UHGV virus genome: UHGV-1695878
From: a virus
Reading direction: 5' to 3' (one strand)
Length of the DNA stretch: 10,862 bases
In this document: piece after piece, positions 1 to 10,862 of the stretch
How the letters are laid out: the number at the start of each line of letters is the position of its first letter
How positions within the stretch are numbered: the stretch's first letter is position 1
Position numbers and translations under genes: made by a program
Notes under the pieces: generated by a model
The model's database searches: none
What the model saw: the letters and a program-made list of their open reading frames with translations, nothing else
What the model was told of the DNA's origin: nothing

Positions 1-82
1 AATTATTGATTTCCAGCGCCACCTGATGTTTCGCGGCTGCTTCAGCAACGGCTTTCACATCTATTTCATATTTGGGATTGCC
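1..82 (-). CDS. ycdX: 3' portion of a core-type chromosomal gene, PHP-family phosphoesterase (YcdX-like), apparently cut off at the island junction; continues leftward out of the window
   Basis: Reverse complement of 1..91 translates [30 protein letters not shown] with the frame open to the window edge. The stretch [27 protein letters not shown] matches what I remember of the C-terminal half of E. coli YcdX (there preceded by ISHP rather than YMIL). Codons are GCG/CTG/GTG-rich, unlike the AT-rich DNA to the right. Recall-based and unverified. Confidence 0.35.
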
Positions 83-121
83 TAATATCATGTACCCATC
101 AACACACGAGAGGATACAACG

Positions 122-391
122 ATGAACATTACCAAAGCAATCCATAACTATGCTCGCCGCCGTGGAATCGAACTTCAACTCGAAGATGAGCAGGTTAGAT
201 TCTGGGAGATAGAACAAGATTGTGAATGGATGTTCAGCTATTCGATTGCTCAATGTGGTTGCTTGTTCTGGAAAGGTAATGTGTATCTTCCTCGCGATAT
301 TAAAGAAGAACTTCCGGCGATGATTGGCACCGATAAGAAGTTAAAGGAAGTCTTAGATTTTATCTACAAAGAGTTTATTAGCAAGAAGTAA
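122..391 (+). CDS. hypothetical protein, 89 aa
   Basis: ATG 122, TAA 389..391; SD GAGGA about 7 nt upstream (gagaggatacaacgATG); followed by a hairpin terminator. No recognisable domain. An open minus-strand frame overlaps it, so strand choice rests on SD plus terminator. Confidence 0.55.
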
Positions 392-401
392 TTTCTAATT
401 T

Positions 402-427
402 GGTGGGTGCAATTCCCACCGCTTTTT
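402..427 (+). terminator. rho-independent terminator
   Basis: GGTGGG-tgcaatt-CCCACC stem-loop followed by GCTTTTT. Confidence 0.5.
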
Positions 428-443
428 AAATGGAGAATCAAAC

Positions 444-527
444 ATGAATCTACTCATTTCTTTTGTGTGTAGTGTCTTCCTTGCAATCTTAAGTTCGGTT
501 TATATCGTCGTGGTAGCAGTGGGATAA
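444..527 (+). CDS. putative small hydrophobic peptide, 27 aa
   Basis: ATG 444 preceded by GGAGAA with 6-nt spacer; encodes MNLLISFVCSVFLAILSSVYIVVVAVG, a single hydrophobic helix. Below the ORF-track length cut-off; may be non-coding. Confidence 0.3.
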   Translation: MNLLISFVCSVFLAILSSVYIVVVAVG

Positions 528-532
528 TCAAA

Positions 533-655
533 ATGAAACAGTTTCATAATGGCATTTCATCTAAGACATTCAAGAAAGATTATTCAATTAGTATTAGCTG
601 GACTGATTTAATCTGCGCTGTGGCATTTGGTCTGATTATTAGCATTAACTTTTAA
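533..655 (+). CDS. putative small protein, 40 aa, hydrophobic C-terminus
   Basis: ATG 533, TAA 653..655; MKQFHNGISSKTFKKDYSISISWTDLICAVAFGLIISINF; weak SD. Speculative. Confidence 0.25.
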   Translation: MKQFHNGISSKTFKKDYSISISWTDLICAVAFGLIISINF

Positions 656-671
656 CGATATAAATATATCG
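656..671 (+). promoter_or_regulatory. AT-rich palindrome containing TATAAATA (T4 late-promoter-like and sigma70 -10-like) upstream of the 701..946 gene
   Basis: cgatata-aa-tatatcg, 7-bp inverted arms; TATAAATA at 659..666, about 35 nt upstream of ATG 701; a TTATTA -35-like hexamer lies 17 nt upstream (636..641). Confidence 0.3.
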
Positions 672-700
672 TAATTCAAATAACAAGAGGAAATTCTACT

Positions 701-946
701 ATGAAAAAGATTATCGCTGGTGTTGTTCTTGCTCTGGGTTTGGTTGGTGCTGCAAATGCCGAACAATATGTACAGGGTGATAGTGTCAAGCGTGCTGCCG
801 TTGCACCTTCTTTAAATCAACTGTGTACTGAATTAGCACAGGTTGCCGGAGTTGGTGACGATGACGACTTTATTACTGCGTGTGTATGGAGTCATATCGA
901 GGATATTAATAAACGTGATGCAAAACTAACTGGAAAGAAATATTAA
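701..946 (+). CDS. small secreted protein, 81-aa precursor with Sec signal peptide
   Basis: ATG 701 with SD AAGAGGAAA; N-terminus MKKIIAGVVLALGLVGAANA|EQ is a typical signal peptide with AxA cleavage site; mature part about 60 aa with two Cys and a DDDD acidic run; terminator hairpin downstream. Confidence 0.65.
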   Translation: MKKIIAGVVLALGLVGAANAEQYVQGDSVKRAAVAPSLNQLCTELAQVAGVGDDDDFITACVWSHIEDINKRDAKLTGKKY

Positions 947-962
947 TGACTTACTAACCAAT

Positions 963-999
963 GCCCCTATCGTTATAATACGCGGTAGGGGCGTTTTTG
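963..999 (+). terminator. rho-independent terminator
   Basis: GCCCCTAtcg...cgGTAGGGGC stem followed by GTTTTTGTTT. The loop contains TTATAAT, a possible weak promoter for the recombinase gene. Confidence 0.5.
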
Positions 1000-1011
1000 T
1001 TTGGAAATGGT

Positions 1012-2691
1012 ATGAAAACTAAACTGTATTCGTATATTCGCTTCTCGTCTATGCGTCAGAGTGATGGTTCGAGTTATGAACGACAAATCAGGATGGCGAG
1101 AGAGATTGCGGCAAAGTATGACTTAGAACTGGTAAATGATTATCAGGATCTGGGTGTATCTGCGTTTAAAGGTGCTAACTCTAAAACAGGGGCGCTATCT
1201 CGTTTCCTTGATGCAATAGGTAGATCCGTTCCTGTTGGTAGCTGGCTATTCATCGAAAACTTGGACCGTTTATCCCGTGCCGATATTGTCAGTGCGCAGG
1301 AGTTATTCCTTTCAATCATCCGTAGGGGGATAACCATTGTTACTGGCATGGATAACAAGATCTACTCGCTTGATACTGTTACCGCTAACCCGATGGACCT
1401 GATGTTCTCCATCCTTTTATTCATCCGTGGTAATGAGGAAAGCCAGACTAAGCGCAATCGTACTAACTCAAGCGCACTGATTAAGATTAAAGCCCATCAA
1501 GAAAATCCCCAGAATCCGGCAGTGGCAATCGAGGAAGTTGGAAAGAATATGTGGTGGACGGATACCACTTCCGGTTATGTGCTGCCTCATCCTACATACT
1601 TCCCTGTTGTTCAGGAGATTGTGGAATTACGGAAGAATGGACGTTCAACCGCCGAAATACTGGATCACCTTAACGAGACATATGCACCACCACCAGCAGT
1701 AAGCAACAAGAAGCATTCAAAATGGTCACGGGCAATGGTTGAAAGGTTGTTTCATACCCGCGCTTTGATTGGTATCAAGGAAATATCTGTAGATGGCGTT
1801 AACTATGAGTTAAAGGATTATTACCCTCGTGTTATTGATGACCCTACGTTCTATCACCTTAAGAAAAATATTGGTGCTAGAGCATGGAACTTTGGAGACA
1901 AGGAAGAAGTTAAACCGATCCCCCTGCTTAGTGGTATTGGCCTATTGAAATGTGATCATTGCGGTTGCGCTATGGTTAAAGTGAAGGGAACGAACAAACG
2001 TTCTGACCAGTATCGTTATACATGTGATGCGACCCGTTCACGTAGACTTGATTGCGAGCATCCAAACTGGAGTTTTCGAGGTGATCAATTAGAGAAAGCT
2101 GTATTGCAATTGCTGGCTGATAAAATCTGGATTGCTGAGGACAAGGCTAATCCGGTTCCGGCGTTGAAAGTACAGGTTGATGAAATATCACGCAAGATTG
2201 ATAACCTGATTGCCCTTTCTGCTATGACAGGAGCAACGAAGGAGCTAGCCGATCAGATTACTACCCTCAATAGCGAGCGTGAAACACTCTACAATCAGAT
2301 CAAGATGGCAGAAGAGGAAATGTATTCTGTTGACTCTCAAGGCTGGGAGAAGCTCGCAGAATTTGATTTAGAAGATGTTTACAACGAGGAACGACTAAAG
2401 GTCCGGTTTAAGATTAAGCAAGCTCTAAAGCGGATCGGGTGTAGCAGGATTGACAGGAATAAAAACTTGTTTGTACTGGAATACATCGATGGAAAGACCC
2501 AGAGAGTTGTAATAGAAAATTCAAGAGGAACGAGGAAAGGACAAATCTTTGTCGATTTGAAAACTATCAATGATAGGCAGATTCTGGAGAGTAACGGGCT
2601 TGTTTTGCATCCATGTTTAGACATGCTGACAGATAAGAACTGGAAACCAGAAGAGGAAATACCAGGTCCATTACAGGAATTTGGAATTTAA
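1012..2691 (+). CDS. large serine recombinase (phage integrase type), 559 aa
   Basis: ORF track starts at TTG 997 (MFGNGM..); I prefer the first ATG at 1012, giving MKTKLYSYIRFSSMRQ. N-terminal resolvase-type catalytic domain (Y-x-R-F-S-S..Q with presumptive catalytic Ser; ENLDRLSR), central recombinase domain, Cys-rich zinc ribbon (CDHCGC...YTCDATRSRRLDCEHP) and C-terminal coiled-coil region: the architecture of large serine recombinases. Confidence 0.9.
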   Translation: MKTKLYSYIRFSSMRQSDGSSYERQIRMAREIAAKYDLELVNDYQDLGVSAFKGANSKTGALSRFLDAIGRSVPVGSWLFIENLDRLSRADIVSAQELFLSIIRRGITIVTGMDNKIYSLDTVTANPMDLMFSILLFIRGNEESQTKRNRTNSSALIKIKAHQENPQNPAVAIEEVGKNMWWTDTTSGYVLPHPTYFPVVQEIVELRKNGRSTAEILDHLNETYAPPPAVSNKKHSKWSRAMVERLFHTRALIGIKEISVDGVNYELKDYYPRVIDDPTFYHLKKNIGARAWNFGDKEEVKPIPLLSGIGLLKCDHCGCAMVKVKGTNKRSDQYRYTCDATRSRRLDCEHPNWSFRGDQLEKAVLQLLADKIWIAEDKANPVPALKVQVDEISRKIDNLIALSAMTGATKELADQITTLNSERETLYNQIKMAEEEMYSVDSQGWEKLAEFDLEDVYNEERLKVRFKIKQALKRIGCSRIDRNKNLFVLEYIDGKTQRVVIENSRGTRKGQIFVDLKTINDRQILESNGLVLHPCLDMLTDKNWKPEEEIPGPLQEFGI

Positions 2692-2727
2692 GCGGCCTAA
2701 ATCGACGTATAACGAGCTAAAACAGTT

Positions 2728-2757
2728 AAGGGGTACAGATGTACCCCTTTTTAATTT
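2728..2757. terminator. bidirectional rho-independent terminator between convergent genes
   Basis: Perfect palindrome AAGGGGTAC-agat-GTACCCCTT followed by TTTAATTT; lies between the recombinase stop (2691) and the stop of the minus-strand gene (2765). Confidence 0.6.
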
Positions 2758-2764
2758 AATTGCG

Positions 2765-3940
2765 TTAGGCAGCATCTAAGAGAGTATTAAAGTATTCATC
2801 CATTAAATCAGGACTGTCGTCATCAATACAGAAAAATTCCGGTTTATTGATGCCGTAGAAGTGAGTATGTAGCTTGAATGTATCGTCATCAAATACATCT
2901 TTCGGGGATACCCACATATTAGCCTCGTCCGGTTGATTGGTTAGGTAGTCATAAACCAGTTGCTGTAAGTGTGGTAACTCATCAATAGTCAGAGTTTCCG
3001 ACCATCCATCCTTGAAATCTTTGTAGGGTGCTGCATGAGTCTTGAAGCGTTGTTTTACTTCATGCTCTAAATCAACGGCTTTCCAACCATCCTCAAACTC
3101 ATGAGTAAAGATTAAGCGGTGAGTGAAGTTGCTCTTTCTGGTTTGCTCTCTCATTCGTTCTTCTGGTTTTCGGGTAGTGATTCCAAATTTAATAAATTTG
3201 TCATCTAATAATTGAATGTAGAAACTAGCCTTACCCTGATAAGTCCGGTTAGACAGTTGCACCAGTTGGTCTTTAATGCAAAGCGGACAAGTGAAAGAAT
3301 CAGCACATCTTAAATGAGATTCCCATTCGTGGTTATGTGACTTGCAATAGGTTTTAAATTTAACATCCTTTAGGTGTGGGGTGTTTATGGTAAATCCTTT
3401 GAAGATGTAAGGTGTAGTCTCGCAACGTGCATTGATGATTGTCTCTTTGTCCTTAATAACTTCATCAAAAGTCTTGCCACTTCTTACCCGTTGGGATTTT
3501 TCAGCCATACAGATTTTGCAATCAAAATCGAAATCATCTTTGAGAGCATGTAATAGAGATGGCGTCATGATTTGATTGTGTTCAGGGCACAAAACACGGG
3601 CTTTCGTTCTATTTCGCCCTTTCCATTCTCCTTGCCATCCGAGGAATTTCTTTCCCTTCTCATTACAACGAGATTCCATTTTCAACCATACAGCCTTTTC
3701 AGTCTGGAGTAACTCACCCCCGTTAGTATCTTCCAGTTTGCGTAATTTGTAGTCCTTATATTCTTGTGTGTCTAAATTGTAGATTCGAAAGTAAGTGTGA
3801 TTACCCTTCCACGGTAGGATAAATCCACCAAATACGAAAGCAGGTTCCAGTTTAGCGATGATTCGTTGTTGGTACTCTTCCGGCGATAAACCGCGAGTTT
3901 TCTTAACAAAAGGAATTTCGGCAGCGTAAGCAAGTTTCAT
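2765..3940 (-). CDS. Cys-rich protein with T5orf172 (GIY-YIG-like) domain, 391 aa
   Basis: ORF track start at 4051 is TTG; the first ATG at 3940 has a strong SD (AGAGGAAActactATG), giving MKLAYAAEIPF... Cys clusters (CPEH...CKIC; CKSH...CADSFTCPLC) and a T5orf172-type core FYIQLLDDKFIKFGITTRKPEERMREQ. Family assignment from motif recognition only. Confidence 0.7.
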   Translation of the reverse strand: MKLAYAAEIPFVKKTRGLSPEEYQQRIIAKLEPAFVFGGFILPWKGNHTYFRIYNLDTQEYKDYKLRKLEDTNGGELLQTEKAVWLKMESRCNEKGKKFLGWQGEWKGRNRTKARVLCPEHNQIMTPSLLHALKDDFDFDCKICMAEKSQRVRSGKTFDEVIKDKETIINARCETTPYIFKGFTINTPHLKDVKFKTYCKSHNHEWESHLRCADSFTCPLCIKDQLVQLSNRTYQGKASFYIQLLDDKFIKFGITTRKPEERMREQTRKSNFTHRLIFTHEFEDGWKAVDLEHEVKQRFKTHAAPYKDFKDGWSETLTIDELPHLQQLVYDYLTNQPDEANMWVSPKDVFDDDTFKLHTHFYGINKPEFFCIDDDSPDLMDEYFNTLLDAA

Positions 3941-3999
3941 AGTAGTTTCCTCTAAAATAATAAGCTCACTACTATTTATTAGAGAAAATTGTCTTGCTA

Positions 4000-4027
4000 T
4001 TGCATTCTCTATCTGAATGTGTATAAT
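4000..4027 (+). promoter_or_regulatory. sigma70-type promoter for the 189-aa/uvsW operon
   Basis: TTGCAT (4000..4005), 16-nt spacer, TATAAT (4022..4027); oriented toward ATG 4095, leaving a leader of about 60 nt with SD AAGTGAGGT. Confidence 0.45.
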
Positions 4028-4094
4028 ATGCGACCCTAAATCCCAAACCAACCATATTGAGGTTATGCCTATAAGTTAAAAAAGTGAGGTCTAT

Positions 4095-4664
4095 ATGATT
4101 CCAGTAATGGCTAAAGATATTGTTTTTACTCCTAAATCCTCCCGTGCTGCAACTCCATCGGCATTAGAACAACGCATTCTGACTCACATCAAAGAGAAGG
4201 ACTTACCGTTAGTCTTTCATGGCTTTCTGGGTGAGTTTAAAGGGCTTCATTCAAGAATTGCTCTTACATGTACCCGATGCGGTAATAGAGCCGACAAATC
4301 AGCTACTAACCTGCTTAATGAAGGTAAACGATGTGTTTGCTTCAATAGTGACTACTTTCAATATAAAGCGGGTGTGCCTTATCTCTATGTAATGAAGTCT
4401 GGGGATATTGGTAAATTTGGTGTTACAAAGTCAATCATCAAGCGACGTGTTAATCTGGGTGTACGCAATCCCGGTCATAACTTTGATATTGTCTTTGCTC
4501 GTGAAATGCCATCAATGAAACATGCTTTAGCCACTGAAAGAGCAATAAAGAGATTACTGGATGTGGGTATAGGCGGGATTGAATACGGCAAAACTGAAAC
4601 ATTCCACTACTGCAATAAATCACTAAACAATATAAAGAATATTGCAAGTGTGGAGTGGAACTAA
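4095..4664 (+). CDS. small zinc-ribbon + T5orf172 (GIY-YIG-like) domain protein, 189 aa
   Basis: ATG 4095 with SD GTGAGGT; Cys cluster CTRCGN...CVCF; then YLYVMKSGDIGKFGVTKSIIKRRVNLG...ATERAIKRLL, a T5orf172/GIY-YIG-like motif. Stop TAA 4662..4664 overlaps the uvsW ATG (TAATG), implying translational coupling. Confidence 0.7.
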   Translation: MIPVMAKDIVFTPKSSRAATPSALEQRILTHIKEKDLPLVFHGFLGEFKGLHSRIALTCTRCGNRADKSATNLLNEGKRCVCFNSDYFQYKAGVPYLYVMKSGDIGKFGVTKSIIKRRVNLGVRNPGHNFDIVFAREMPSMKHALATERAIKRLLDVGIGGIEYGKTETFHYCNKSLNNIKNIASVEWN

Positions 4665-6154
4665 TGCAAGATATTAAAATTCATTTTCAAGATTACAGTT
4701 TCGTTAAGGTTGATTGCTCTCCTTCCATCGGAATGGAATTAAGAGATTATTTCTCGTTTGAGGTTGAAGGGGCTAAGTTTAGCCCCCGTTACAAGTATTC
4801 CGGCTGGGATGGACGAATAAGACTGTTTACGCATGAAAATACCCTACCAATTGGACTATTAAAAACATTGGGTGTCTTCGTTAAAAATATGGGCTATTCA
4901 GTCTGGATTGACCCGCGATTGCTTGAGAAGGAAGATGTAACCAAAGACGCGATTAATGAATGGATTGATTCCTTAGAAGTGTATTCCGGTTCCAATAAAA
5001 TCAATCCTTACTGGTATCAGCGTGAAGCAGTCTTTCAGGGTATCCATAATCGCCGGAGAATGTTAGTTCTTCCTACCAGTGCGGGTAAGTCATTGATTGC
5101 TTGTATGCTGTCTCGTTGGTACTTAGAGCATTACACCGGAAAGGTGTTAATCATTGTCCCGACTACATCGCTAGTGGTTCAAATGAGGGATGATTTTATC
5201 GATTATCGGTTATTCCCTTATGAAGCAATTCATACAATGATGAGTGGTAGCGGGAAACATCCGGGAGAAAGGCTAATCACTGTTTCAACATGGCAATCAG
5301 CTTGCAAGATGCCCCCTGAATGGTTCAAACAATATGGAATGTTGATAGTTGATGAATCGCATAAGGCTAGTGCCAAAAATATTACCAATATCATTAACGG
5401 AATGAATCATTGCCAATTTAAGATCGGCATGACTGGTTCCCCGAAAGAATCAAAGTGCCATTTAATGCAGTATGTCGGGCTTTTCGGTGATATTTCTAAG
5501 ATCGTGAGTATTGACCGCCTGATGGAAGAAGGGCAGGTGACAAAACTGAAAATTAACTGTCTTTTCCTTCGTTATACCGATGAGGAATGTAGCGCGGTTA
5601 AGGGGAGAGAATATGCGGAAGAGATCAAGTATATTACATCTAACCCACGACGTAATAAGTTTGCTTGCAATTTGGCGCTAAAACTCGCTAAGAAGGGCGA
5701 AAACGTATTCCTGATGTTCCGCAATACTAAGCACGGAAAACTTATGTATGACGCGTTACAGAAGGTACACGACAAGGTTTATTATATTGACGGTGGAGTT
5801 AAGACAGAAGAACGTGATGAATTTAAGAAAATGGCGGAGGGTGACACCGGGATCATTTGTGTTGCGTCTTATGGTGTGTTCTCTACTGGTGTTTCAATTA
5901 AGAATTTGCACCATGTTATTTTCGGTCATCCAGTGAAGGAATCAACTATCGTTCGTCAGAGTATCGGTCGTGCATTGCGTAAACATGGTTCTAAGGATAT
6001 TGCAACGGTCTGGGATCTTATAGATAGCCTATGCATAATCGGTCGTAACGGAAAAGTCAAGCGCAAAAATTACGCGGTAAAACATGCACTTGATAGAATC
6101 CGCTATTATGTGACCGACAAATTCGACTATACAACTAAAACAATTGCTATATAA
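4664..6154 (+). CDS. uvsW: UvsW-type SF2 DNA helicase (T-even phage-like), 496 aa
   Basis: Start taken as ATG 4664 (ORF track begins at GTG 4655); GGAG 8 nt upstream. N-terminus MQDIKIHFQDYSFVKVDC plus SF2 motifs LPTSAGKS (Walker A), IIVPTT, DESH, MTGSP and QSIGRALRK. Colinear over its whole length with phage T4 UvsW as I recall it (MDIKVHF..., about 500 aa). Confidence 0.9.
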   Translation: MQDIKIHFQDYSFVKVDCSPSIGMELRDYFSFEVEGAKFSPRYKYSGWDGRIRLFTHENTLPIGLLKTLGVFVKNMGYSVWIDPRLLEKEDVTKDAINEWIDSLEVYSGSNKINPYWYQREAVFQGIHNRRRMLVLPTSAGKSLIACMLSRWYLEHYTGKVLIIVPTTSLVVQMRDDFIDYRLFPYEAIHTMMSGSGKHPGERLITVSTWQSACKMPPEWFKQYGMLIVDESHKASAKNITNIINGMNHCQFKIGMTGSPKESKCHLMQYVGLFGDISKIVSIDRLMEEGQVTKLKINCLFLRYTDEECSAVKGREYAEEIKYITSNPRRNKFACNLALKLAKKGENVFLMFRNTKHGKLMYDALQKVHDKVYYIDGGVKTEERDEFKKMAEGDTGIICVASYGVFSTGVSIKNLHHVIFGHPVKESTIVRQSIGRALRKHGSKDIATVWDLIDSLCIIGRNGKVKRKNYAVKHALDRIRYYVTDKFDYTTKTIAI

Positions 6155-6188
6155 CAAAAAAAGCGCCTCTAGTGGGCGCTTTAATTTT
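6155..6188. terminator. bidirectional rho-independent terminator between convergent genes
   Basis: AAAAAA-AGCGCC-tctagtg-GGCGCT-TTAATTTT between the uvsW stop (6154) and the stop of the minus-strand peptidase gene (6187). Confidence 0.6.
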
Positions 6189-6540
6189 ATCCATTCCATC
6201 TAGCCTTATAACCACGGCTATCAATGTGCGTAAAGGTTTTGTATTTGCCTAAACCATACTGATCGGGATATCTGCTATCGAGATAAGAGTGAACGATATC
6301 AGGAGAGACACCTTTCACTACAATATCAGCAGCCTTGCCCGTGATATGAATCGAACGAGAAGCGCCACCAACTTTCTTATTGTGTGCCGGACAACGGTTA
6401 GCACTGTTAATAACTACTGGTTTCCCGAAGTGTTCGCGTACATCCTCAAGAATTGCCAGTAATTCAGCGTCTACTGTATCCTGTCCGCACTTCCCACATT
6501 TGCATTCAAATTCTTTACGTTTGAAGTAACGAGAGATCAT
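6187..6540 (-). CDS. M15-family zinc peptidase (small phage-type cell-wall peptidase), 117 aa
   Basis: N-terminal FKRKEFECKCGKCG motif and zinc-ligand pattern H-x6-D ... H-x-D (SIHITGKAAD ... THID), typical of small phage Peptidase_M15 proteins; SD AGGGGGTAAT; no signal peptide. Confidence 0.75.
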   Translation of the reverse strand: MISRYFKRKEFECKCGKCGQDTVDAELLAILEDVREHFGKPVVINSANRCPAHNKKVGGASRSIHITGKAADIVVKGVSPDIVHSYLDSRYPDQYGLGKYKTFTHIDSRGYKARWNG

Positions 6541-6549
6541 ATTACCCCC

Positions 6550-6897
6550 TTAAAGGTATTGGAAGATATACCCAATAAAGCGCATACCCTTGATGTAATA
6601 AGGTGTAGTGCCTAGACATACCGCTCGTGTATCGCCAATACAATTGAAGTTGTAAGGATTAACTACATCAATCTCCTGCCCTACACGAAAGCGATACTTA
6701 GGACGTTTAGCGAGTGTCGCAACACAAAACACTAGCCCGTTACCATCATCGCGGATCATTTGCTTGAATTGTTTATGCTGGACTCTCTTCGCCTCAAAAT
6801 CATGTGTCATTGATTCAGGGCTAATGCCATTAATAAAAATACCGGAAAGCTGATCGACCGGATAAGTAGGAAATTCAGTGAAAATATTTTTAGCCAT
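6550..6897 (-). CDS. hypothetical protein, 115 aa
   Basis: ATG with SD TGGGGGTATAAC; tightly packed in a same-strand gene series; no recognisable motif. Confidence 0.6.
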   Translation of the reverse strand: MAKNIFTEFPTYPVDQLSGIFINGISPESMTHDFEAKRVQHKQFKQMIRDDGNGLVFCVATLAKRPKYRFRVGQEIDVVNPYNFNCIGDTRAVCLGTTPYYIKGMRFIGYIFQYL

Positions 6898-6935
6898 GTT
6901 ATACCCCCATAAGTTTCTATGAGGGTATTTATGGA

Positions 6936-7619
6936 TTAAACGTATTTCATGCGTGATTTAATGTGCTTGTTGATATGTTCAAGCATCATTACTTCGTTGC
7001 TTTCCCACGATCCTAGCGTCGAATAACGAGTAGAAATTTTATCCGACTTAACGGCAACAATTCGCTTACTCTGTTTCTGTATGCGTTTCTCTAAGCGACG
7101 TTTTGCCACCGCCGATCCATTCTTAGCGCGTTTGGTTCGGGATTTCTTAGGCTTGTACTTCTTCATGATAAAAGTCCCTTCCTTGTTCTCTACCTTGATG
7201 AAGTTGCCGTTTTCGATGTTACGCATCATCTTACCGCCTTTGATGGCCTTAATGTTCCCGTGGGAGTCTAAGACCTTGCCGTTAGCGATTGGAACTAGCT
7301 TATTGATTTTGCCACCATCGAAATAGTGTTTCAGATAGTCATCCTGACTGCCGATCTTCTTGTCCTTATCCCGTGCGCCCTTGATGAAGATTTGGTGTCT
7401 CGTCCCTGATCGGTTCTTGTAGTTGGTGTTACCTACAGCTTGCTGAGTCCATCGAGTAGGTCTATCAACATTCTTGTTAATCTTCTTCTGGAGTGCTCTG
7501 GAAGCAAAGATCGCCCCTTCCCCTATCGCCTTTTCGAATGTATCGGTTGCCTTTTCAGACCATTGCCGTAACGCTTTCTTAGTCCTTAGAGCGTTTCGTT
7601 TATTGGTACTGGTTGCCAT
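6936..7619 (-). CDS. hypothetical Lys/Arg-rich basic protein, 227 aa
   Basis: SD AGGGGGCTAAC directly upstream; strongly basic tracts (KKYKPKKSRTKRAKNG); no predicted TM segment; function unknown. Confidence 0.65.
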   Translation of the reverse strand: MATSTNKRNALRTKKALRQWSEKATDTFEKAIGEGAIFASRALQKKINKNVDRPTRWTQQAVGNTNYKNRSGTRHQIFIKGARDKDKKIGSQDDYLKHYFDGGKINKLVPIANGKVLDSHGNIKAIKGGKMMRNIENGNFIKVENKEGTFIMKKYKPKKSRTKRAKNGSAVAKRRLEKRIQKQSKRIVAVKSDKISTRYSTLGSWESNEVMMLEHINKHIKSRMKYV

Positions 7620-7620
7620 G

Positions 7621-7791
7621 TTAGCCCCCTAATAACGAAAAGACCCCCGCCAGTGTCCTTAGCAATTGTTCATCCACGGTCATAGCCGGGAGTTCAAGCC
7701 CAAAGGACGTTAGCAGAGGTCTAATAGCTACGTTATAAGTGAGGGCGACAATCAAGAGATAACCAAAATATTTCTTAAGTTTATTCTTCAT
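7621..7791 (-). CDS. putative small membrane protein, 56 aa
   Basis: Not in the ORF track. ATG at 7791..7789 with SD AAGGGGTG (7-nt spacer); stop TAA at 7621..7623, 1 nt before the next gene start; MKNKLKKYFGYLLIVALTYNVAIRPLL... with one predicted TM helix. Confidence 0.4.
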   Translation of the reverse strand: MKNKLKKYFGYLLIVALTYNVAIRPLLTSFGLELPAMTVDEQLLRTLAGVFSLLGG

Positions 7792-7809
7792 ATATTCACC
7801 CCTTTATTA

Positions 7810-8088
7810 TTATTTTTGTTTGAGTATGTCGAGAACTTGGTCAAATTTGGCGTCCATCGCAACCACTTTTTTCTCTATGCCGTGTAGTGTTTGTTCCATT
7901 TGGTAAACACGTTCAGCAATCTTAGTATGGTTATTCTGCATCGTCTCAAACTTCTGGTTTAACAATGCGTCGCTGGATTCCAATTTAGATAACCTATTTT
8001 CAGTTGCTAATTGATTTCGGTGAAGTCTCCAAAGACCACCACAAATTAAGGCGATAACACCGATACCGCCATATATAATTTCAGTCAT
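7810..8088 (-). CDS. membrane-anchored coiled-coil protein, 92 aa
   Basis: SD GGGGG upstream; N-terminal hydrophobic segment IIYGGIGVIALICGGLW followed by coiled-coil-like sequence; first gene of the leftward operon. Architecture resembles spanin/Rz-like or immunity-type proteins, but no homology is claimed. Confidence 0.6.
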   Translation of the reverse strand: MTEIIYGGIGVIALICGGLWRLHRNQLATENRLSKLESSDALLNQKFETMQNNHTKIAERVYQMEQTLHGIEKKVVAMDAKFDQVLDILKQK

Positions 8089-8138
8089 TACGCCCCCGAT
8101 ATTTTATAATTTAATGGCAGAATTATTTAGATAAAAAT

Positions 8139-8172
8139 AATCCCGCCTAACTCAAAAGAATTAAGCGGGATT
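8139..8172 (-). terminator. rho-independent terminator downstream of the J-like gene
   Basis: Read on the minus strand: AATCCCGC...GCGGGATT stem followed by TTATTTTTAT, just 3' of the J-like stop codon (8191..8193). Confidence 0.5.
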
Positions 8173-8190
8173 AATTATTAAAATTAAATT

Positions 8191-10719
8191 TTAAGAAATA
8201 GAAATGCCAGTTGAGGCTTTCTTAGTTACAAGCACAGTCAAATCACTGATATATCCAATTGGGTTATAGTTGTTAACACCATCGCAAGAAACTTCAAACG
8301 TTAGCGTTACCGCCCCCTGTCCGGCTGGCATATCAATTACCCCACTGTACATACACCCACTGGTAGCGGTGCGGTCATATAGAACAGAGCCATTTTTCTT
8401 AACGATCAAACGGCATGTATCCCAAAGATCGTTATGTTCATAGCTGCGCATTGACCCATTGTGATGGATAGCTGGAATAATGATTTGTCGGTTAAATTTA
8501 TGGTCATCTTCAATACGCACTGTCAAAGTGCCGTTAGGCCAGTTGGCGTTTTTGTGCGGGAATCGCTTACCAACCGCTTTCACGAAGTCACCCCTAACCT
8601 GAGTAGCATCAAGCATACCCTTAATATCACAGCTAGAGTTAATCGTGACGTTGTTCAGAGTACCAGAATCAGCGGTAATATTTCCCCTGATCGTTGCGTT
8701 CATGAACGTAGCAGAGCCATTCTTGTTAATATGCCATCCGGTAGATCCGTTCCAGTTGGAAGACTGGATATAGTTACCGATTTTAGCATTATCAATTGCA
8801 CCATTTACAATCTTGGCATTGGTGATCGCGCCGTCCTGAATCTTCGCAGTATTGATCGCAGCATTGCCGATTTTAGCATTAGTGATAGCCGCATCATTAA
8901 TCTGGGCTGTCCCAATCGAGGCATTACGGATCATTGACCAGTCCATGTACACCTTGTTCCCTTCGACACCGAACGGAACAACACCCGCCGCGCCATCCTG
9001 CGGAGCTACCGCCAGTTTATCAGCCGTAAAGATGATTCTGGTTGGTTTAGCCGGATCATTGGTTGCGCTCATGTGAATACCAGCCACACGACCATCTGCA
9101 TTAACAGAAAGGTTGTATTTGCTGTTAATCGTCCCTGTCAGCTTATCGATCTTCGCTTCCGCTTCCTGGTTAACACCAGCGATCTTACCGTCCATTTCTA
9201 CCCGAACTTGTTCGATCTTAGTCGCGCTCGCTTGTTCGCTGGTAGCGATTACCTTTTTCAAATCGGTAACGGCTGCATCAACTTTCTTAGTAACGGTTCC
9301 GTTAGTTTCCGTTGTGATAGTCTTATGAAGTCGATCTAATTTGATGTCGGCATTCTCGCCAGCTTGAGCGATAGCATCAGCGATAGTTTCATCTAAGCGG
9401 TCTTGCAATCCGATCAAGTCCTCTAATGCTTCTTTGTCCTGATCGTCCCAGGTAATCGTAGATTTCATTTTCATGAAATACGGTTCAGACCAGACAGCAT
9501 CATCAGTACCGAAAATATCGTAGTGTGCCGCACGAAGATAATAATCACCGTCCGCAATATCAAAGGATGTATGACTAACGCTATTCGTGCTTACTGCCCG
9601 TGCATTAGAAAAATCCTGATTAGTTGCATACTGGATGATTGTACCCGCGTAATCTGACTCTAAAACATCACCATTCCAACTAACGAAAGCGGAGTTAAAG
9701 CCACCACGAGCGTTAAAACCTTTGATTGGTTTATGTTGTGGGTTAATCGCCACTAAACGCGCTGGGGCGCTCTGTGAGTTGTTATAGCCCCTAGCTGATA
9801 CTTCTACCGTCAATTCACGGGAAAGGCCGTTAAACTGGTTCATATCGAGCGTATAAGTCCATGATTCAGGATCGCGGGTACGGTACTGAATAGACTTACC
9901 AGCTTTGTTAGTGATCTTGATAATGTACGCATCAAACAAATCACTGAATTTATTCGTTTCGCCATTCACGACTACATCTAGTTTTTGCTGGTTTTCCCAT
10001 GCAATAGTAAGGTCATTACCTTTGAAGTAGTTCGGCTGGCTGCCAACGTTTTTGATTCGAATAACTGGAGTCGGTAACTCATAGGTAACAGTTGGATTCT
10101 GGTTAATCAGTTCCACCCAATCGGATCGCGCAATAATACCGAAAGCACATACACGATAATCATAAGACCTATCGCTTGCCAGTGCATTGATATTAAAAAT
10201 TTGCTGCGACGTCTGACCAGCTTTAATCCAGTTAGGTGATCCACTCACGCGGTAATCTACCTGGAAGCCATAACGGTTGAAATCTTCCGGTGCATCCCAT
10301 GTTAACGAGATATTTTTACCGTGGATAGTCTCGCCAGTTGCCTTAATTCTAAAGTTAGTCGGCGCTTGTACTGTCATTGAGTCCGGCAGTCCGGTCGGGC
10401 GATCATCTGGGTTTGCTGCATAGTTCAGATCGGTATAAATCTTGGAATTGTATTCCGTGGCGGTGATTGCCAGCATACCAGCGATACCAGAATCAATAGA
10501 ACGTTCAATCGCAGTAATACGCCAAAGGGAATTACTTAATTTTAATTCATCATGCGTAACGCTGATAACGTCCCAGACTTCGGCGGTGAATGCGTCGGTA
10601 GTCATGAAGCTGATAACCTGCGTTATACGTGATTTGTTGCGCTCTATGCTCGCCAGTTTATCAATCTGGGCTTTATCCTTAACAAAGCGATATTCTACGT
10701 CTTTAGCGATGATTCGCCC
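8191..10719 (-). pseudogene. lambda J-like host-specificity (central tail fibre) gene, 5'-truncated by IS1 insertion
   Basis: Frame open from 10734 down to stop at 8191..8193. The C-terminal ~170 aa align by eye with the lambda J receptor-binding domain ([16 protein letters not shown] vs lambda DMPAGRGNVILTFTLTS; [10 protein letters not shown] vs KKQALGISVV; [15 protein letters not shown] vs SNVTIAENCTINGTL); fibronectin-III-like repeats lie upstream. Only 842 codons are present against about 1130 for lambda J. The frame runs into the IS1 inverted repeat at 10720 and terminates inside it (TAA, complement of 10735..10737). The ATG at 10605 used by the ORF track is internal. Confidence 0.8.
8780..8929. 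repeat. five imperfect 30-bp tandem repeats inside the J-like gene
   Basis: Consecutive 30-nt units (gattttagcattatcaattgc.. / aatcttggcattggtgatcgc.. / aatcttcgcagtattgatcgc.. / gattttagcattagtgatagc.. / aatctgggctgtcccaatcga..) encoding 10-aa repeats of the form A-I-x-N-A-K-I-x-N-x. Confidence 0.6.
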
Positions 10720-10862
10720 GGTGATGCTGCCAACTTACTGATTTAGTGTATGATGGTGTTTTTGAGGTGCTCCAGTGGCTTCTGTTTCTATCAGCTGTCC
10801 CTCCTGTTCAGCTACTGAAGGCGTGGTGCGTAACGGTAAAAGTACTGCCGGACATCAGCGCT
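10720..10862 (+). mobile_element. IS1-family insertion sequence, left end (partial; continues beyond the window)
   Basis: GGTGATGCTGCCAACTTACTGATTTAGTGTATGATGGTG from 10720 is the IS1 left inverted repeat; the following sequence matches IS1 with a handful of substitutions. The 9 bp immediately outside (gattcgccc, 10711..10719) would be the target duplication if this is a simple insertion. Confidence 0.85.
10775..10862 (+). CDS. insA: IS1 InsA, 5' part (3' end outside window)
   Basis: GTG 10775; translates [29 protein letters not shown], the InsA N-terminus with its CPSC zinc-finger, a D-to-E variant of the K-12 form as I recall it. Confidence 0.8.

Follow-up and report, generated by a model that had tools for sequence, protein, structure and literature searches.

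What interrupts the chromosomal gene ycdX at the left edge of UHGV-1695878, a virus genome of which a stretch of 10,862 nucleotides (the window, in all that follows) was analyzed here, and which enzyme placed the interrupting DNA there? The gene belongs to the chromosome of E. coli and Shigella and encodes a non-essential zinc phosphatase of the PHP family, with His131 among its metal ligands. A first-pass annotation, made from the letters alone, had seen a minus-strand frame resembling YcdX that stays open while losing the expected ISHP residues, metal-ligand His included; it had placed an island boundary within 60-130, about 0.9 kb from a large serine recombinase, and had proposed that the element was integrated within a protein-coding gene by that recombinase. 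The evidence assembled below makes it very probable that window 56..105 is the hybrid attachment site attL of a temperate tailed phage, which was put into ycdX at a TT dinucleotide by the large serine integrase that the phage itself encodes.

The broken ycdX gene and its second half

Positions 1..79 of the window are chromosomal DNA, an internal piece of the ycdX 3' fragment read on the minus strand and covering residues N134-N159, as established by translation, BLAST and alignment to the gene of strain K-12; the fragment runs on leftward past the start of the window. The minus-strand frame of 1..130 is free of stops when translated, and comparison with K-12 YcdX bears out what had been seen in it: the window retains N134-N159, while ISHP with His131 is gone, the upstream IISHP having been replaced. 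The metal-ligand role of His131 is assigned in the YcdX crystal-structure paper, here taken as cited in PMC7046640.

A BLAST search for the uninterrupted gene, as the annotation had advised, fixed the breakpoint at 79/80, inside the proposed interval. Identity to ycdX is 100% over window 1..79, or 98.8% over 1..82, where base 80 is the single mismatch (E = 6e-32), and the gene is intact in island-free genomes; the annotation had named the lack of a breakpoint, or of any chromosomal gene matching the left 80 bp, as fatal to its proposal, and neither was encountered. A megablast of window 1..400 found matches in 4,832 of 5,426 complete E. coli genomes, nearly all of them ending at base 79 or 82, with only 27 genomes matching on through base 400. 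Conversely, of 5,396 genomes searched with 200 bp of K-12 sequence centered on the breakpoint, 5,369 have this stretch intact and 27 have it broken, so that the number of genomes with a broken ycdX site equals the number carrying this attL; lysogens at ycdX make up 0.5% of complete E. coli genomes. The breakpoint is thus real, specific and rare. The shift from GC-rich to AT-rich DNA that had drawn attention to the region does run in the direction described, but it is small (43.0% GC in 1..79 vs. 38.4% in 80..1011), too weak to serve as sole evidence for a boundary and not needed for that purpose. A tRNA or other RNA gene as the target is ruled out, since neither a tRNA nor any Rfam family occurs in the window.

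The window holds only the left junction, and the right one was read from a complete relative, NZ_AP045758.1, where the search for the other end, also suggested at first pass, was successful. There the same junction opens onto phage genes that extend over 36.7 kb, after which come the 5' part of ycdX and then ghrA. The genes annotated between the two ycdX halves encode a recombinase, nuclease, helicase, endolysin, tail tip, tail tube, tail fiber, capsid, portal, terminase and Rha regulator, and the window itself encodes an M15 endolysin and a J-like tail tip by Pfam. What had been called an island is indeed an inserted element, but it is a tailed prophage, of about 36.7 kb in intact relatives, rather than a generic island.

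Joining the left part of attL, the TT and the right part of attR restores K-12 ycdX exactly, with no base lost, gained or duplicated. When both are aligned with the empty K-12 site, attL equals attB through window base 79 and attR equals attB from the same TT on, leaving an overlap of exactly 2 bp. This crossover dinucleotide lies at 78..79, corresponding on the coding strand to the AA of codon N134 (AAT); a 2-bp crossover had been predicted, though near 80..90, and it falls just to the left of that range. The ycdX attB reads ...CATATTTGGGA-TT-TCCGGGATGG..., the attL of the window ...CATATTTGGGA-TT-GCCTAATATCATGTACCC... and the attR of the relative ...GACTACGTTCGGG-TT-TCCGGGATGG..., from which an attP of about 54 bp was reconstructed as GTTATTGGGGGTTGACTACGTTCGGG-TT-GCCTAATATCATGTACCCATCAACAC, or, written through, GTTATTGGGGGTTGACTACGTTCGGGTTGCCTAATATCATGTACCCATCAACAC. 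Within the attL at 56..105, the B arm (ycdX) would extend over approximately 56-77, followed by the TT and by a P' arm of phage DNA from 80 to about 105, the outer limits being set by the extent of arm conservation across family members. The P arm is conserved over about 26 nucleotides across relatives. The Gly133 codon at attL (GGC) comes from phage DNA, and the attB spans the codons of the conserved SHPGNPKY motif.

For the host, the insertion parts the metal ligand His131 from Asp192 and His194, because of which YcdX should be inactive in the lysogen; 37 kb now separate the downstream genes ycdY and ycdZ from the upstream part of the unit in which ycdX is transcribed. Annotators should accordingly treat ycdX as a pseudogene in this strain, owing to the prophage.

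The serine integrase and the proposed reaction

The purported integrase gene occupies 1012..2691 on the plus strand and encodes 559 amino acids from an ATG that lies 933 bp from the crossover, in good agreement with the 0.9 kb first estimated. Its layout comprises a catalytic domain (residues ~1-160), a recombinase domain (~198-287), a zinc ribbon (310-368), a predicted coiled coil (~382-438) and an extra C-terminal domain of about 110 amino acids (~450-559). Pfam places PF07508 Recombinase on residues 198-287 (E = 1.4e-8; 35.3 bits against a cut-off of 21.1) and PF13408 Zn_ribbon_recom on residues 310-368 (E = 1.1e-10). Resolvase was not listed in the full-length scan but was clearly found when the N-terminal 163 amino acids were scanned alone (PF00239, residues 6-153, E = 2.2e-15, 57.5 bits). 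The protein matches phrog_95, 'integrase', with E = 1.3e-62, matches PDB entry 3guv, and has the very sequence of a protein named from Shigella boydii, so that the source is probably Shigella. Across 36 aligned homologues, down to 29% identity, R10, S12, D85, R86 and R89 are invariant, as are C314, C317, C338 and C348.

The AlphaFold model (mean pLDDT 80) has a long helix at 127-164 and paired long helices at 382-406 and 410-438, which are the basis for the predicted coiled coil. Searched against the PDB with Foldseek, the model returns full-length serine integrases at the top, with probability 1.00: 9dxf (6.4e-17), 9rah, which is phiC31 (5.9e-15), and 4kis, the LI integrase with DNA (1.4e-8). 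The TM-scores are modest, 0.2-0.5, which may reflect a flexible arrangement of domains. Taking together the resolvase, recombinase and zinc-ribbon domains, the overall modeled fold and the 2-bp dinucleotide shared by the sites, we judge the product of 1012..2691 to be a bona fide large serine recombinase, as had been proposed. It also has no apparent competitor, as the annotation of the 36.7-kb relative element lists no further recombinase or transposase and none is detectable among its right-end open reading frames (ORFs). The junctions, the 2-bp TT and this sole recombinase together support integration within a protein-coding gene by the nearby enzyme.

Most of the well-studied serine integrases come from Gram-positive hosts. 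The one described here resembles those of phiC31, Bxb1, TP901-1 and the Listeria phages (A118/LI) in its resolvase domain with a Ser nucleophile, its recombinase domain, its zinc ribbon with coiled coil and its fold, and also in the 2-bp dinucleotide common to attP and attB, a putative imperfect dyad in attP and the position of the gene next to attP. It differs from the integrases of solved structure in having only ~13-15% sequence identity to them, in carrying the extra C-terminal domain and in its enterobacterial host. Integration within a protein-coding gene at a conserved motif, such that precise excision would restore the gene, is likewise familiar from A118 in comK, SPbeta in spsM and the skin element in sigK; unlike in those systems, nothing here suggests that excision serves as a developmental or regulatory switch. 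Among sequenced phages the nearest proteins are the YbcK-type, large-serine-recombinase-like proteins of E. coli lambdoid phages and DLP12, and the serine recombinases of Burkholderia phages Bcep176, Bcep22 and JC1; alignments to these cover 80-94% of the length, but at only 27-31% identity, and with no match to attP or the att region.

By analogy with the established mechanism of phiC31, Bxb1, LI and related integrases, dimers of the 559-amino-acid protein would bind the attP of about 54 bp and also the attB inside ycdX. The two complexes would synapse, and at the non-palindromic TT common to both sites all four strands would be cut, leaving 2-nucleotide staggers. Half of the complex would then turn through 180 degrees and the strands would be religated to give attL and attR. 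Excision would be expected to require a phage recombination directionality factor.

How else might ycdX have come to be broken here? One might imagine that there is no mobile-element junction at all, and that the truncation is a deletion or rearrangement scar, the trace of an insertion sequence (IS)-mediated event or an assembly chimera; the source genome is rich in IS elements, with an IS1 at 10720, and a single junction is visible in the window. Such an origin is scarcely credible for a junction common to 27 independently finished genomes, with no IS end at 79/80 and with the missing ycdX half located precisely at the other end of the element, the two halves rebuilding the gene exactly. A more serious thought is that the element entered ycdX by way of a tyrosine integrase, a transposase or homologous recombination, the serine recombinase being a passenger of the invertase or resolvase kind. 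Homologues in E. coli prophages, such as the Pin invertases and the YbcK-like proteins at 31% identity, are not always integrases, and PHROGs does give a weak second match to 'DNA invertase'. The protein nevertheless has the full architecture of a large serine recombinase, unlike the short invertase form, and neither a tyrosine integrase nor a transposase is annotated or detectable in the 36.7-kb element. A transposase would have left a target duplication of 3-9 bp where we find a 2-bp overlap, and the ycdX junction does not have the longer identical core that is usual for tyrosine integrases, although the hicB junctions described below do share TTGCC. This overlap, together with the domain architecture and the location of the gene next to attP, fits integration by a serine integrase and does not fit a tyrosine integrase or transposase. 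Since in addition one and the same base pair is targeted in E. coli and Salmonella, and the allele of the DNA-binding domains co-varies with the insertion site, we regard entry by another enzyme as very unlikely.

Some observations do weigh against phage integration by this enzyme as the origin of 56..105. The attP is reconstructed rather than observed: no intact copy, as expected of a free or circular form, was seen when the reconstructed 120-bp attP was compared with 50,697 phage records; the exact attP 26-mer is absent from IMG/VR, and a 20-mer from metagenome contigs. A looser 17-mer gave at least 120 matches in the metagenome contigs, all of them due to chance, the best among the matches listed agreeing at 33 of 54 positions, of which 16 are forced by the pattern. 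Of the imperfect inverted repeats that had been predicted to flank the crossover, the one in attP speaks for an integrase site, its arms agreeing at 13 of 26 positions, as happens in 2.3% of shuffles; the dyad symmetry of attB, by contrast, does not rise above chance save for GGN-TT-NCC. No candidate directionality factor was recognized among the small ORFs by Pfam or PHROGs, and the phage collection contains no isolated close relative (integrase at most 31%, terminase at most 43% identity). The copy in the window may no longer be a viable phage, because an IS1 sits in its tail-tip gene. Finally, recombination at this locus is deduced from sequence comparison. Set beside the exact restoration of ycdX and the architecture of the integrase, these points leave integration by the phage-encoded serine integrase very probable.

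As a feature of a genome, such an insertion is routine phage biology. What is gained is the exact attL and attB, a reconstructed attP and the integrase responsible, an enzyme from Enterobacteriaceae for which we found no characterization in the phage collection or in the literature that could be searched. Literature searches on prophages or integrases at ycdX and on serine recombinases at hicB turned up no description of the system; the only relevant item was a table entry for a Cronobacter sakazakii prophage at ycdX (Grim et al. 2013, PMC3680222), which names the same insertion locus in another enterobacterial genus and reports neither the type of integrase nor its att sites or crossover.

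Target choice in the integrase family

The integrase family is concentrated in a few genera, with identities of 87-100% in Escherichia/Shigella, 69-77% in Salmonella, 74% in E. fergusonii and 60% in Edwardsiella, all other homologues being at 40% or below. Four divergent members, P0015 from E. coli and P0036, P0053 and P0069 from Salmonella, all reside in ycdX; the TT is identical in each and the P' arms are related, so the same base pair of ycdX is used in both hosts. Because these four share site and dinucleotide, ycdX is the widespread and probably the ancestral target, with the SHPGNPKY-motif attB of the PHP phosphatase serving in Escherichia and Salmonella alike. The E. fergusonii relative (L021/L022, ~1900..2010) lies beside a truncated cytosine/purine-permease gene (Transp_cyt_pur) and an amidohydrolase gene, at the junction ...CCCGGTTGCC-TT-GCCTAACATATC..., that is, ...GGTTGCC-TT-GCCTAACATATC; the permease gene looks like a third target gene of the family. 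A scan of species-representative genomes gave only relatives at 52% identity or below and was hence uninformative on further sites.

The second target is the antitoxin gene hicB, in which E. coli sister prophages are found with an attP almost the same as that of the ycdX type. Here attB reads ...CCTGTTTAGGT-TTGCC-AATTCGCC..., attL ...TGTTTAGGT-TT-GCCTAATATCATGTACCC... and attR ...GACTACATTCGGG-TT-GCCAATTCG..., and the junctions share 5 bp, TTGCC, that contain the same TT. The split loci were read in E. coli O55:H7 DEC5A (L004, ~3137..3256, and L007, ~23066..23374) against the intact gene of K-12 (L006, 5766..6182), and among 5,323 complete genomes 42 have hicB broken at the position concerned. 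The cut falls after approximately codon 103, and the toxin gene hicA is left intact next to the truncated antitoxin gene. Throughout the family, each attL in ycdX or hicB has a P' arm of the form (G/C)CCTAATAT..., with the related form GCCTAACATATC at the E. fergusonii junction, and in E. coli and Salmonella all of the ycdX and hicB attLs examined contain GGN-TT-(G/C)CCTAATA. On the bacterial side, the B arms of the ycdX and hicB attBs agree at 10 of 15 inner positions, which 0.2% of shuffles reach; the B' arms show no agreement above chance.

The sister integrases are 87-92% identical overall, and where they share an N-terminal allele their differences lie almost entirely in the DNA-binding domains. 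In the closest pair compared, the integrases of the window and of DEC5A (92% overall), identity is 98% over residues 1-185, falls to 82% over 186-360 and returns to 96% over 361-559. The hicB-site integrase of L3Cip3 is only 87% identical overall because it has a different N-terminal allele (83% over 1-185), while its DNA-binding allele is the same hicB type. At 24 positions the hicB group has a fixed residue that is absent from the ycdX group; of these, 19 fall within residues 196-351, with E222A, N232H, K237N, N286S, W292C, D347E and P351T among them. There are two alleles of the N-terminal catalytic domain (residues 1-185; window 1012..1566), 83% identical to each other, and since they reassort with the DNA-binding and C-terminal alleles, recombination near residue 185 is implied. 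The N-terminal allele reassorts independently of the site.

The DNA of the DNA-binding segment is present in 55 complete genomes. It is at least 96% identical to that of the window in 26, for which the site is ycdX in all checked; a second allele, at 87.8% identity, is found in one genome, at ycdX; and a third, at 85.7-88.0%, is found in 28, with hicB as the site in all checked. Altogether the sites were checked in about 24 of the 27 genomes of the ycdX class and in 27 of the 28 of the hicB class, and the DNA-binding allele tracks the target in every one of them, though the relationship is correlative. UTME-9 has two copies of the segment, and BS74R-D (NZ_CP063332.1; L025, L026) carries both prophages, at ycdX and at hicB, each with the matching allele.

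These observations raise the possibility of a natural retargeting series, in which the catalytic and C-terminal modules and the attP, with its TT core, stayed nearly constant while a change in the DNA-binding segment (residues ~186-360, about 175 amino acids) moved integration from the ancestral ycdX to hicB, and took the distant E. fergusonii relative to the permease gene. We advance this tentatively, giving it slightly less than an even chance. Much the same correlation would be obtained were the enzyme a relaxed, two-target integrase to which ycdX and hicB are interchangeable whatever its allele, the lysogens of each class merely sharing ancestry. The near identity of attP in the two groups and the resemblance of the attB B arms would suit such an enzyme, as would the report by Durrant et al. 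(PMC10083194) of integrase clusters at 90% identity with several targets, and the lysogens are not phylogenetically independent. Interchangeable targets would sit poorly, however, with an agreement of allele and site that holds in every genome checked, in hosts of many origins, and that persists despite the free reassortment of N-terminal alleles; L3Cip3, a hicB lysogen, moreover leaves an intact ycdX site unused, and in BS74R-D each of the two phages is at its own site. A relaxed specificity therefore appears unlikely, though less so than either of the alternative origins considered above for the junction itself.

The work of Durrant et al. (2022, PMC10083194) provides a precedent both for distantly related serine integrases sharing one target gene and for closely related ones using different genes. 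Their approach likewise paired integrases with attL, attR and attB reconstruction, and some of their families have a conserved TT core; the integrase and att sequences described here are absent from the supplementary text of that paper. If a retargeting series is what occurred, it would amount to a compact natural map of the determinants of attB specificity, useful for reprogramming serine integrases. Were the link between allele and site causal, nature would have supplied a ready-made experiment on attB choice, one that bears on genome engineering with serine integrases.

Other features of the prophage

The left arm of the prophage occupies 80..10719 and, from Pfam, PHROGs and the annotation of relatives, comprises the integrase module, a nuclease/helicase cargo, the endolysin and the 3' part of the tail-tip gene. 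The first ORF (122..391, plus strand, 89 amino acids, phrog_6147) has its start codon 43 bp from the crossover. Two unrelated forms occupy this slot, independently of the integration site: the 89-residue MNITKAI... protein (phrog_6147) or one of 128 residues beginning MFNIMIRKF... (L005, 3613..3999; L025, 3734..4120), in some genomes annotated as a 'beta/alpha barrel domain-containing protein'. A plus-strand ORF of 81 codons at 701..946, whose N-terminus (MKKIIAGVVLALGLVGAANA) resembles a signal peptide by eye, has no Pfam or PHROG match and is variable among relatives, an ORF of 137 codons taking its place in L039/L040.

Directly upstream of the integrase start, at 960..995 on the plus strand, is a terminator-like hairpin of 14 bp plus a T run, with TATAAT in its loop, which suggests that expression of the integrase may depend on read-through or on a promoter inside the hairpin. 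A second terminator-like hairpin, bidirectional, at 2728..2749, separates the integrase gene from a convergent nuclease gene. The latter (2765..4051, minus strand) encodes CapR and GIY-YIG (MUG113) domains, RefSeq relatives starting at ~3940, and is followed by a CapR-domain ORF of 189 codons (4095..4664, plus strand). Both match phrog_681, 'endonuclease', and lie just upstream of a uvsW-like helicase gene; several relatives lack or replace this module, and the pair may be defense or counter-defense cargo.

The helicase (4655..6154, plus strand, 499 amino acids) has UvsW_N, ResIII and Helicase_C domains, and window 4585..6154 is 76-85% identical in nucleotide sequence to uvsW of the lytic T4-like phages Phi1, kaaroe and JK32, an unusually high DNA similarity for a temperate prophage to share with virulent phages. 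When the DNA of 80..8000 was compared with the phage collection, the uvsW-like helicase of T4-like phages was all that it matched. The Salmonella and E. fergusonii relatives examined have the gene; several E. coli relatives lack it.

The J-like tail-tip gene, whose longest ORF occupies 8191..10605 on the minus strand, is uninterrupted and about 3.7 kb long in relatives. Here it is broken by the end of an IS1 copy at 10720..10862, whose terminal inverted repeat begins at 10720; relatives match the window no further than 10716-10720, and the annotation shows IS1 features beneath the match. This IS1 is not part of the integration system, but it marks the present prophage copy as damaged. The right arm of the prophage in NZ_AP045758.1 (L003, 12383..13829) includes a stretch of about 1.4 kb with no annotated gene, between the early-region and the right-end ORFs.

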